Source: Zootoca vivipara
Lineage: Eukaryota
Assembly (NCBI RefSeq): GCF_963506605.1
Contig: NC_083288.1
Span: 48,980,001-49,044,000 of the forward strand
Direction of reading: 5' to 3'
DNA length: 64,000 nucleotides
Shown here: positions 43,175 through 63,700 of the stretch, in pieces
How positions within the stretch are numbered: position 1 is the stretch's first letter
How the letters are laid out: the number at the start of each line of letters is the position of its first letter
Notes under the pieces: model-generated
What the model was told of the DNA's origin: nothing
Database searches by the model: none
What the model saw: the letters and a program-made list of their open reading frames with translations, nothing else
Position numbers and translations under genes: made by a program

Positions 43175-45951
43175 TCACTGATTCCTGGTGTTGCTAAGGT
43201 ACTGTCGCAACGTGGGGATGAGGGTGTTGTGCCTGGTGCACTGGTATTCTCCCTGTTGGAGGAGAAAGGGGAAGAGGCCTTGGGCTGGCGGAGCCCCTTC
43301 AAATCACACCGGCACACCTCCACTTCAAGCTCAAGAAGGGACACACTCAATGCATCTCCATCAGCCTTATTTAAATATCAGGGCACACGGTACTTTGCAG
43401 AGCGCTAGAGGATAGGTCCCTGCCCTGAGGAGCTTACAATCTAAAACCTGACAGGGAACAGGGAAGCAAGATGCAGCTGTTTCAGCTGCACATGCTTGAG
43501 CTTGCTTACAGTTACAGCACAGCAGCCTTTCGCAACCGAGGGCCCTCAGTTTTGGACTACAACTCCCATCAGCCCCAGCTGGCTGCTCCAGGCGGGGATG
43601 GGGGAATTACGGGCCTGAGCCAACAGCTGTTCCTTCAACATTCATCGGGGACACCAGCCAAGGCCCTGGCCTGACCTGCACTTTCAACACACACCCCCCC
43701 CAAAAAATGGCATGCTGAGTATCTTGCTCCTCACCTTCATGAAAGGGGAATCGCATCCGTCACTGCATGAATCCAGGACAAAATCCTCGACTTCTTCTAG
43801 AAAGAGAACGGAAGGGGTTATGGGCACTTGGCACATCTTTCGCTGCTCCCCTGCATAGCCAAGGCTGCATCTTCTCCCCAGGTCAATGCAAGGATTTTTC
43901 TACCCTCCTTTGGAAAGCGGAGGGATGTGGAAATTGGGGGCAGGCCCGTCAGGTCAGGGCCCTGCAGTTAGCAAGGGGGGAGGGTGGTAGCAAGGAAACA
44001 GAAGTCCCTGCTGAGCTCCTCTAACCCTGGTCATTCCAAACCTACGCCAGGCCACAGCCCCTCCACCCTGTCTGCTCCTGATACACTCCTTCCCTAGAGA
44101 GAAAGAGAGATGTTCCCAGAAACAGGAGGCTGAAATACAGAACGGGGGAAAGCGGGGTGATTTGGGGAGCAGGGAAGAGGTGTCTCACAAGGGAGGGAAA
44201 ACAGCCAGCCCTCAAAAAATCCAAACGCTGGAACTCCCCCCCCCCCGGTGAGTCTTCATGTGGTTTTTCTTCAGCTGCTGGCCTTCCAGCTGCTTTTGGC
44301 TGGGGCTGATGGGACCTGCAGCCCAATGTACATGGAAGGGTACCAAGGCATGGAGGCTGGAGTAAACTATTTGGGGGGGGGGAATACATTCAATTCCCAG
44401 AATTGTACTTGCCCACATAGTGGGGAGAAATTCATAGAAGCAGGACTACCTACCCATTCCCTGGTTGCCCAGTCGACGCCTGGAGGAATCCCTAAAGGAG
44501 GGAGAAAAAGAAGAAGATAGTACAAGCCGTTAAGGGGCAGGGGAACCAGGAAAATGAGGACAAGGAGACACTTACTGTTCCTGGGCGCAGGGTGAACTAC
44601 TCCTGTATGCATGCGCCTGGGAGGGCTCAAGTGTCCTATGTTCCCCCTCCTCCTCGCTGTGAACTAGGGAGCTTGACAGGCGGGGAGAAGGTGGGCGCAT
44701 AGGTAATCCTGGAAGAAGGGCAAGAGGTTGCAAACAAAGGACACACAGGGAAGGAAGGCCAAGGGCCGCAAGGCAAATGTCTTCGTTACCTACCTGCGGT
44801 CTGGTACCCCATGGCGGAGAGGTAGCACGAGAGGATGCTGGAGTCCGGCTGGGGAGTCCGGCTCGGCCCTTGGAGGCAGGCAGTGTCCAGCAGCTAGGGA
44901 GGGGGGAGGCAAAAGTGTGGGCCAAGGCCTGCCCATAAAGCCTGTGCCCTACCATGGAGCCACGGGGCCCCTCCACCCCAGGAGTGCTGAAGGGGGGGGG
45001 CGACGGCAGTGGACTGCCAGCTCACCGCTTGGTTCCAGCCCATGCCCCGCTACTATTGCTACTGCTGCCTGGTACCTGGTGCAAATCGGGCTCTGGGAGG
45101 GTTTTCTCCAGTTGCCACAGGTAATCGTGAAAGAGCTCTTTGACCACCTGCATAAAGGCTTCTCCGTAATCCTTTTCCAGGTGCTCCTAAAAGGCAAACA
45201 TCCAAGAACGTTTGCAATCACCTCTGTCAGAGGTTATTACGGCTACTCCTGAGTAACGACTCTCCACATACTTGTCTTTCAGAGTCTTTAATTTGGTGCA
45301 CATTATTTACTGTGTGATGAGCTGTCGGTTTCATGTCCGCTTATTCCGTGTCAGAATCCGGCACTGCCCCTTTCCGCCCCTTGGACCAACATAAGAGCCT
45401 GGGGACAGCAAAACTCCTCCCTTTCCTCCTCCTCCTTAATTCCGGTGCCGGGGGAAAGGGTCTATGCTCCGTCTTTTCCCTCTCCCCCCTTTCCGTCTCT
45501 CTCTCTTCCCGCCTGTGGAGCAGGGGCTCTCCCACAGGCGGGAAGAAGCCCTGCTCTCCCTCTCTGCTTCCTGACTAGCTCCTTCAGACCCTGCGCTTCC
45601 ATGGCTGCTTGGGGAGGAGCTGCTACTGATGATAGGGGGAGGTTCTCTATACTCTCTCCCCCTTACAACCTCCAACCGAGGCGCTATTCCAACACCCATC
45701 TTCAGAATAGGGATCTGCCTTCTATGAGATTGTCCATTTGCCCCAGCATTTTCTGTTATCGGGTGGGGAGCCCGTGGGGCCCTGCAGAAGTCGTGGCACT
45801 ATGATCATTGGCCATGTAGCTGGGGCTGATGGGAGTTGGGAGACCACAAAGATCTGGTGGGCCAGATATTCCTTATACCTGATCTCTCAACTTAACTGAA
45901 GATGCCCTGATCAAATGTAGGATGTTCTGTATGCAAAGCATGTCCCATTCT

Positions 45952-60749: not shown

Positions 60750-63700
60750 GAATAGGACGTCCCTATTTTCATCAGTGAAATGTTGGAGAGTTCCCTCACT
60801 GTGAGAAGCGAGGTTGCAGGGAACCAGGCAGAGGGCCTTCTTGGTGGTGGCGCCCGCCCTGTGGAACGCCCTCCCATCAGATGTCAAGGAAATAAACTTT
60901 TAGAAGACATCTGAAGGCAGCCCTGTTCAGGGAAGTTTTAAATGTTTGATGTTTCATCATGTTTTTAATATTCTGTTGGGAGCCGCCCAGAGTGGCCGGG
61001 GAAACCCAGAACCCAGGCAGATTCGTGGGGTATAAATAATAAATTGTTGTTGTTGTTTATTTGTGTGTGTCCTGCCTTGGGAACCCCAGCTGCCTGTCGC
61101 CTTGTCCACACAGCACATTACCTTCAGGATGTTTGTAAATGTCGGTGACATCGTGGCGCTGATTTGAGCCCACTGCCTTGGTACTGATTAAGTGACCGAT
61201 TGCCTTCTCCTCCACATAGACAATCTTGAAGCTGCCGTCAGACTGGCGCTGCCAATAAACCTTGTCACTGTTCACCTGCAGAGAGAGAGAAAGTGGGTCA
61301 GAGAAACCCATCAGCAGGCCTGCCGCAGTAAAAACCAACCCCTGTGTTTGCCCATGGTTCTGTTTGGGGGAGAGGGGCATCTCTCTGCCCTTTTGCATTT
61401 CACATAATGGTTGGGTTGGAAGGGACTACGAGGGCCATCTTGTCCAACCCCCTGCAATGCAGGAATCTTTTGCCCAACGTGGGGCTCGAACCCCTGACCC
61501 TGAGGGTCACAGCCTCATGCTCTACCAACTGAGCTAAACTTGTCCCAAAACTGAACCTTGCTTAATGAACTAGGGAGATGGCCTTCTCGGTAGTGGCACC
61601 CGTCCTGTGGAACACCCTCCCATCAGATGTCAAGGAAATAAGCAACTATCTGACTTTCAGAAGACATCTAAAAGCAGCCCTGTTTAGGGAAGTTTGAATG
61701 TTTGATATTTTATCGTGTTTTTAATATTCTGTTGGGAGCTGCCCAGTGGGCTGGAGAGGCCCGGCCAGATGGGGGGGGGGTATAAAAATTAAATTTATTA
61801 TTATTATTACTTCTGTGAGGGGGAAAGAGTACAGAGAGCCCCCCCCCATCTTGAGGAGCAGTTCCTCCACCAGCAGCGGAGCCAGCGGGGAGGGGGAAGA
61901 GTCCAGTGGGGAAGAAGGAAGTAGGAGACGAGGCTCTGGCAGGATAGCAGAGCCTCTGCTGCACGTGGGAGAGGAAGTGAGAGAGGGGGAAAAGGGGGAG
62001 AAGGAAAACATGGAAAGGAGACCTTTTTTCCCTCCGGTTCCGGAATTACGCAGGAGGAAACACGGGAGGAGATTTGGGGTACCCAGACTCTTATGTTGGA
62101 AGAAAACGCGGGAAGCACCATTCCAGGGTTCTGGGTCAGACTGAGAACATGTATCCTGTACAGCTCTAGCACTGTAAATAGCCTGCACTCAATAAAAGCA
62201 TGAAAAGGCAAAGGTCTGGAGAGTCGTTACTCTAGAGTAGTTGCAACGCACCCCCTGTGACAACTTCTTCTCTTTACCTACATGATCCCTGGAGAAGGTT
62301 TACCCAGAAGTCAAGTCACAACAAGTTCAACAGGCCGGCAGCCCACAGCAAACTGTTGCCAGCTCAAAATTGCTACCGTAAACTTTGAAGAGAGAGATAC
62401 CTGTATAAGGTATTCATTCCCGTTTCTGTGGCGAAGACCTTGTACAGTGGCCCCTCAACTTACGAATTACTCGACATCCGAAGTTTCCGGCTTGCGAACG
62501 GGACAAATGGTTGCACGCTTACGAATTTTTCTACACCCGAACGGAACACCGTTGGCGGTTTTAGATGTGGTTTCCTCAACTTACGGATTTTAAATGCGGT
62601 TTCCTCGACTTTCGAATTTTTCCGAATACTTTTTTTCCTATGGGAAACCGCTTTTCGACTTACGAACCTTTCGGCCTACGAGTGTGCATTCGGAACGGAT
62701 TAAGTCCGTAAGTCGAGGGACCACTGTATATCTATGTCTATCTACCCATCTAGAAAGATGGATACAGTGGTCCCTCGACTTACGAATTTAATCCGTTCCA
62801 AACGGACCTTCGTAAGTTGAAAAAATCGTAAGTAGAAGCCTATGGTGGGGGGGGGGATTCGTAAGTCGAAAAAATCCTACCTAAAAATTCTTAAGTCGAA
62901 AAAATCCTATCTAAACCGCATCCAAAATGGCGGACGGAGCTCCGTTCGTAACTCGAAACATTTGTTAGTCGAGTTATTCGTAAGTCGAGGTACCACTGTA
63001 TTTCAATTTCATTGGAAGTTCTAGCAGAAAACCAAGTTTAGTGATGACAAGGATTACAGTCATAACTCATGATACGTCCGCTTCATGTTGCTTCTTTTCA
63101 GGTTACGGACGCGCCGAACCCGGAAGTCCCGGAACGGGTTACTTCCGGGTTCAGCGCACCTGCAACCTGCACGCATGTGCAGAAGCGCTAAATTGTGCTT
63201 TGCGCACGCACAGAAGTGCCGCATTGCGTCACGCACGTGTGCAGATGCGGCACTTCATGTTGCGGCCTTTTCATGTTGTGAACGGGCCGCCAGAATGGAT
63301 CCCGTTTGCAACAAGAGGTACCACTGTATTATGATTGTGTCTCTGAGCAGTTTCCCTCAATCTGGCATTATCAGGATGTTGTTGAAACCTTTCATCACCT
63401 TCAGTCTTTGACTGTGACATTAGCTGGGGCTGATGGGAGCTGGAGTCCAGCAAAATCTGGAGGGCACAGGTTGGGGAAGGTTGCTCTAACCTTTTGTTTA
63501 TCCACAGCTGCAATTGAAATTTATTCCACCCCCCGTTGCAAATCAGGCGAGATTCAGCGGGAAACGCAACGTATTCTGGCTTCTCCAGTCTCACTATAAG
63601 TTGCAATTTCAGCTGAATTTGGGGAAACCACTCGACGCCTCTGTTGTGTGGAGCGATTGCCATTGGTGTTGTTGGTTTTGCTCCTTGCAAACAGTCTGCA

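Follow-up and report, generated by a model that had tools for sequence, protein, structure and literature searches.

Two solo LTRs lie in the 64,000-nucleotide stretch of the Zootoca vivipara genome analysed here (the window), and their U3 regions hold a conserved reading frame for a Ser-, acidic- and Arg-rich peptide. They raise the question of why an LTR remnant should retain such a frame and to which protein it once belonged. The initial annotation proposed that the parent retroelements encoded a protein running through the polypurine tract into the 3′ LTR under purifying selection, either as a C-terminal extension of integrase or as an accessory gene analogous to nef or sag.

A conserved reading frame in the U3 of two LTR subfamilies

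The copies represent two subfamilies, A and B (Table 1). As had been claimed, the subfamily A frame is open from the second base of the LTR, with 109 codons at 61815-62141 followed by a TGA at 62142-62144, and the subfamily B copy shows two blocks in different frames with one net shift between them. The codon pairs that had been cited are indeed present in the A/B alignment; the account given of these differences left out some non-conservative changes, namely R/S (twice), T/P and G/A. Within the N block (20 codons) we counted six synonymous and four non-synonymous codon differences, with mismatches distributed 2/1/9 over the three codon positions (9 of 12 in third positions), and within the C block (24 codons) five of each, distributed 2/3/10 (10 of 15 in third positions).

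Table 1. Features of the two solo LTRs in the window
Feature	Position	Strand	Remarks
Left target-site duplication ACTTC	61809..61813	.	Flanks subfamily A LTR
Solo LTR, subfamily A	61814..62262	+	TG...CA, 449 bp; 1905 first-look genome candidates, 40 scored
Reading frame	61815..62144	+	Very probably the last 109 Pol/integrase residues, plus stop; relic without upstream pol
N block	61815..61874	+	YRxxPP and Ser run; overlaps U3 att end; dN/dS 0.24-0.27
C block	62028..62099	+	Pro-rich, Arg-rich, LxCW; dN/dS 0.13-0.14
Complement (11 nt) of the family's primer-binding site	62120..62130	+	Putative self-primer and U3/R boundary
AATAAA	62191..62196	+	Likely poly(A) signal in R
U5 palindrome	62228..62239	+	Read by eye
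Right target-site duplication ACTTC	62263..62267	.	Flanks subfamily A LTR
Solo LTR, subfamily B	45225..45667	-	Target duplication GAGGT; single frame break between blocks
Putative self-primer segment, subfamily B	45365-45355	-	

A search of the 1.44-Gb genome gave 1905 (A) and 2143 (B) first-look candidates, 40 of each being scored. Among the 30 closest A copies from the DNA search, 18 are open to the same stop and 25 are flanked by exact 5-bp duplications, and 14 of 29 B copies are open through LxCW. This conserved-frame pattern exceeds chance, and the solo copies in the window make no tail protein themselves. Frames of 578 codons that hold the peptide were set aside as solo LTRs that had landed in frame in a LINE by chance.

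To compare rates of change, 134 distinct LTRs were grouped into 15 clusters, and 54 copies representing 12 of these were aligned as nucleotides (three single-copy clusters were dropped, and at most four copies per cluster were compared). Computed pairwise between clusters, dN/dS in the LTR peptide frame was 0.33 (codon-bootstrap interval, shared ancestry ignored, 0.26-0.42). The other two sense frames gave 1.30 and 1.13, and the antisense frame with the same third positions gave 0.44. Purifying selection on this frame is thus borne out, with a value that is not near 1 across 12 LTR subfamilies. By block, dN/dS was 0.24 (N), 0.46 (middle) and 0.13 (C), and 0.89 in the last 12 codons, which are therefore unconstrained as protein; after the stop it was 1.04 in the same frame, although one other post-stop frame, which served as a control, gave 0.52 (0.34-0.78). 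The C block is the most conserved part of the LTR frame and is also present in relatives from Podarcis. Codon phase gave a parallel result: the commonest U3 length is divisible by three in all 15 clusters, across eight different lengths, whereas R+U5 lengths are distributed 7/4/4 over the three phases.

Conservation at the DNA level, imposed by the att end, by a promoter element near -30 under LxCW or by RNA structure, might mimic coding. The inferred start site (see below) does follow LxCW by about 20-30 nt, and in the last codons it is primer pairing that imposes the constraint. Nevertheless, dS under the block is 1.7, close to saturation, with codons varying freely, and each of the seven length changes that separate subfamilies is a multiple of three. 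Taken together, dN/dS and phase largely refute this explanation, which we regard as extremely improbable.

Parent elements and the continuity of pol into the 3′ LTR

Both window copies are solo LTRs of a large lizard Ty3/gypsy chromovirus family. One subfamily A copy is a 3′ LTR preceded by gag and chromodomain sequence, and searches with its internal region led to 5.8-kb full-length elements with TG...CA LTRs, a 5-bp target duplication and a polypurine tract. On their sense strand gag and pol are the only frames of at least 300 codons, and there is no env. The Pfam order is a Ty3-type gag with DUF4939, PR, RT, RH, IN, SH3_Tf2-1 and a chromodomain (PF00385, above cut-off) at the integrase C-terminus, followed by a tail of about 225 residues without Pfam assignment. 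The U3 peptide alone has no Pfam match and the parent gag no PDB match; searches of Pfam, PDB sequences and the ESM Atlas with the U3 peptide, the repeats of the tail or the tail itself gave nothing usable.

A protein query ending before the junction of internal region and 3′ LTR gave 150 listed matches, 59 of them with equal scores, and 32 of these 59 lie in one and the same 1384-codon frame. The young full-length elements thus obtained show the LTR frame contiguous with pol. At least 32 loci of this young subfamily have the 1384-codon pol frame. Among 20 elements hand-picked to span differing frame lengths, pol crosses the polypurine tract in the frame of the LTR peptide in 17; 13 of these continue through about 300 nt of LTR to the homologous stop and four shift later within the LTR, whereas the other three elements end before the junction. 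Pol is also continuous with the frame in independent relatives, namely protein P0041 and the Podarcis muralis proteins P0045, P0047 and P0049. The suggestion that the parent protein runs through the polypurine tract, and does so as an extension of integrase, is therefore upheld, and the window peptide is very probably the C-terminal end of Pol/integrase. The pol frame would run uninterrupted past the polypurine tract and take in all of U3 in the 3′ LTR, and the tail would remain part of integrase after processing.

Several observations concern the structure of individual elements. LTR pairs of the very young subfamily (L143-L161, on many contigs) are identical or near-identical, and its gag and pol frames overlap; they are accompanied by a GGGAAAC heptamer that presumably resembles the -1 frameshift site of PEG10. 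L159 (C6:89478400-89488399) is a tandem element with a shared middle LTR, and a comparable pair of matches 5.4 kb apart occurs on C15. An internally deleted element (L031:109-2109) has a gag fragment and has lost most of pol, with chromodomain and tail kept; its 5′ LTR is cut to the first 28 nt and fused to gag.

The same continuity bears on the idea of a separate accessory gene with its own start or splice site. HIV/SIV nef and MMTV sag overlap U3 as separate spliced genes, and the lizard frame shares with them the coding use of U3, although its peptide would be the end of pol instead of a separate gene. Some copies do have an upstream in-frame ATG, and conservation persists where the junction is broken. 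However, the start codon is not conserved, the upstream part of the frame is unconserved and often closed, intact elements have the frame running on from pol without interruption, and no splice joint into the 3′ end of the element was found in three RNA runs of low depth. The nef/sag analogy is accordingly abandoned as highly improbable.

The older subfamilies, A and B included, are less uniform. In a tally of distinct junctions, all eight young junctions were in frame, as opposed to 12 of 40 older ones; the other two phases accounted for 11 and 17 of the older junctions, so that the in-frame share shows no excess over one third. Out-of-frame junctions common to several loci were found in cluster 1 (five) and cluster 3 (two). 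Subfamily A was in frame in one of three junction copies, a thin sample, and no clean subfamily B junction occurred among those tallied. The junction region holds up to three G runs, and 16 LTR pairs differed by seven indels, all in one G run, as against 27 substitutions. Since such indels are present even between otherwise identical LTRs, and since older elements are also broken elsewhere in pol, decay or assembly error is likely behind the older out-of-frame junctions; instability of the G run can account for them without proving that cause. Because some out-of-frame junctions are shared across loci, tail-less copies must have spread, and these were either complemented in trans or able to do without the tail.

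Alternatively, the older subfamilies might reach the U3 peptide by slippage on the G runs at the polypurine tract, with translation, transcription or reverse transcription as the slipping step; short and long integrase would then be made in regulated proportions. The 28 out-of-frame cases among the 40 older junctions, several of which share one state across loci, would fit this explanation, as would an older element whose 1117-codon open frame stops at the LTR border. Young elements and relatives in other datasets are, however, plainly in frame, the out-of-frame states are of both kinds, and the G-run indels and the decay elsewhere in pol noted above likewise argue against it. We consider slippage improbable and retain it at that level because of the shared out-of-frame states and the thin A and B sample.

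Our literature search found no paper on a vertebrate chromovirus Pol that extends into U3; Butler et al. 2001, Repbase reports or supplements may mention such an overlap. The layout itself is already known from other hosts: the Pol frame of plant CRM group A and of the beet elements Bingo1-4/7 continues into the 3′ LTR, where it encodes a conserved motif (CR) thought to target integration (PMC3059260, PMC3605345). The likeness is one of layout, not membership. Plant CRM group A has a tRNA-Met primer site and a CR motif that replaces the chromodomain; the lizard element lacks such a primer site, carries its tail behind a chromodomain and resides in a vertebrate. In addition, the plant elements cluster at centromeres, whereas young lizard copies, judged by position along the contigs and not by mapped centromeres, are spread along chromosomes. 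If pol is read as we propose, this is a vertebrate LTR whose whole U3 doubles as promoter and protein-coding sequence, and thousands of solo LTRs would carry an orphan integrase tail, which matters for annotation and for LTR evolution.

Putative self-priming and the layout of the LTR

No tRNA-type primer site was found 3′ of the 5′ LTR. Instead, 24 of 25 5′ LTRs contain, close to where the reading frame ends, an 11-nt segment exactly complementary to the primer site, and the two co-vary through seven variants. This pattern matches the self-priming described for Tf1 and Tj1 (PMC4600332), and we infer that the family primes itself in the manner of Tf1, from its own 5′ end instead of a tRNA. The match would place the transcript start at 62120, so that U3 (306 nt here) would be wholly coding and the last codons would lie within R, where their lack of protein-level constraint would be expected. 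A TAAATA at 62176 was rejected as a TATA box because the primer match sets the start about 55 nt upstream of it. In full-length copies the 3′ half of the U5 palindrome complements, by eye, the sequence directly after the primer site, and the two likely form a U5-leader stem.

In the three RNA runs, coverage of the family was low and two-stranded, with a depth below 1 at the subfamily A LTR of the window, and the shallow reads from both strands showed no pile-up of starts at the 11-nt segment.

The family shares with the Tf1/sushi group its domain order, chromodomain, Tf2-type SH3, DUF4939 in gag and LTR-complementary primer site (PMC4600332), and differs in the tail of about 225 residues after the chromodomain, the FxGF repeats and the fully coding U3. 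By domain content and priming it thus appears to be a Tf1/sushi-like chromovirus, the tree described below having been built without a Tf1 or Sushi sequence.

The post-chromodomain tail, its relatives and candidate host factors

Between the chromodomain and the polypurine tract lie two repeats, in each of which a short hydrophobic helix is joined to FxGF by an acidic Ser/Thr linker. Across nine longer elements dN/dS was 0.16 in these repeats, compared with 0.08-0.09 in the catalytic domains, 0.14 in the U3 C block and 0.47 in the U3 middle. The tail is predicted to be disordered (mean pLDDT 51, pTM 0.11), and the first and third aromatics of the cage are missing from the chromodomain. Ahead of both FxGF repeats lies a third helix-acidic-aromatic repeat, which is degenerate (L143:5654-5780 and relatives).

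Published work on TND-interacting motifs describes the same layout and reports that the FxGF part is required for binding of LEDGF and HRP2 (PMC9987994). Motifs that bind the integrase-binding domain (IBD) of these proteins are described for JPO2 (CDCA7L), IWS1, MLL1, POGZ and JIL-1 (PMC9987994, PMC7835958, 10.1101/624023). The lizard repeats have the hydrophobic helix, an acidic Ser/Thr linker of 8-16 residues and FxGF, in tandem and in a disordered region; they differ in sitting in a retrotransposon integrase and in being known from sequence pattern alone. Host genes of the CDCA7/CDCA7L type carry the same pattern (helix-F, acidic linker of 8-10 residues, FxGF), and HRP2 is encoded by the host genome. 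A profile of the element repeats, run against 3239 translated segments from 72 kb around host CDCA7/CDCA7L-type genes, ranked the motif of one of these genes top, weakly (9.8 bits, E 0.1; next 4.8), with two other host motifs outside the top 8. The pattern, defined after the repeats had been seen, occurred in 3 of 20000 shuffled tails. The FxGF repeats resemble host motifs that bind LEDGF/HRP2, and it is somewhat more likely than not that they would bind the integrase-binding domain themselves, in place of methyl-lysine reading by the chromodomain.

The first protein search with the tail region, against full-length proteins, gave no match at E<=0.001. A tail profile searched against 1.84 billion representatives gave four matches, three of them true relatives with the basic block and LxCW; the fourth, P0043, was discarded as a repeat artefact. 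P0041 has the full order in one frame, and P0041, P0045, P0047 and P0049 all show FxGF motif(s), a Gly-rich junction, the basic block and an LxCW-like end. Among 120 Pol proteins listed in a second search, three from Podarcis muralis have an LxCW-type end or a close variant. FxGF occurs in eight of the 120 (six Podarcis, two Anolis) and in none of the 82 that have the third cage aromatic; because the FxGF-bearing proteins are mostly from one clade, this association with cage loss reflects no more than two origins. In a tree of 28 rows, 27 of them picked from the 120 proteins, the element family groups with six Podarcis muralis Pols (support 100/99) and the Anolis FxGF pair forms a separate long branch, and the Anolis family may have gained the motif independently.

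The two Anolis carolinensis Pols (P0128, P0137) have no Pfam chromodomain and a single FxGF motif much like that of host CDCA7L. This motif follows a junction-like stretch and may itself be LTR-coded. P0055 (Podarcis muralis) and P0051 are further gypsy Pols in which a long tail, first acidic and then basic, follows the chromodomain. In P0055 the aromatic cage is retained and FxGF is absent; the protein ends in RRSARL, which we take to resemble the nucleosome-binding core of HMGN.

For the Arg/LxCW block encoded in U3, basic composition and the precedents of the plant CR motif and of the C-terminal signals reported for Ty1 integrase slightly favour a role in nuclear localisation and/or in docking on nucleosomes or nucleic acid. 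Several other motif labels (CENP-C-like, BC-box, PP1 RVxF, cyclin RxL, SH3 class I and MLV ET-binding) were each considered and dropped as unsupported. The disordered tail would likely carry the integration complex to the nucleus and attach it to chromatin; within it, the FxGF repeats may engage LEDGF/HRP2 and the U3-coded block may act as a signal or docking element.

We tentatively extend this to squamate chromoviruses: a modular integrase tail mimicking host FxGF motifs would have taken over from histone reading by the chromodomain and would ride LEDGF/HRP2 into transcribed genes, and the entire U3 promoter would have been recoded as a second, basic module for docking on chromatin. To this full model, convergent with HIV yet acting by short-motif mimicry, we give somewhat less than an even chance. 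HIV integrase binds LEDGF through a folded surface and not a short FxGF-type motif (PMC6382798). If the FxGF repeats do bind LEDGF/HRP2, a retrotransposon would reach the tethering factor of HIV by mimicking a cellular motif, which would suggest, in directly testable form, how insertion sites are selected by vertebrate gypsy elements whose chromodomains are degenerate. The literature searched, with Repbase and supplements outside its scope, contained no FxGF motif in a retrotransposon integrase and no such post-chromodomain tail.

The positions of 54 young copies along the contigs were not different from uniform (p=0.54), with no centromere-like clustering and no clear chromosomal bias. With copies on C4, C10, C19 and small contigs left out of the counts, solo LTRs lean to the outer parts of chromosomes (A, 23 of 32, p=0.001; B, 26 of 35, p=0.0001), and young full-length copies show no clear lean (28 of 54). 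Within the window, a transglutaminase exon lies at 61123-61275 (-), about 540 nt from the subfamily A LTR, which is probably intronic and antisense to that gene. A spliced exon at 45077-45185 (-), supported by RNA joints and without a Pfam match, lies 40 nt downstream of the subfamily B LTR and is presumably TINF2-like.
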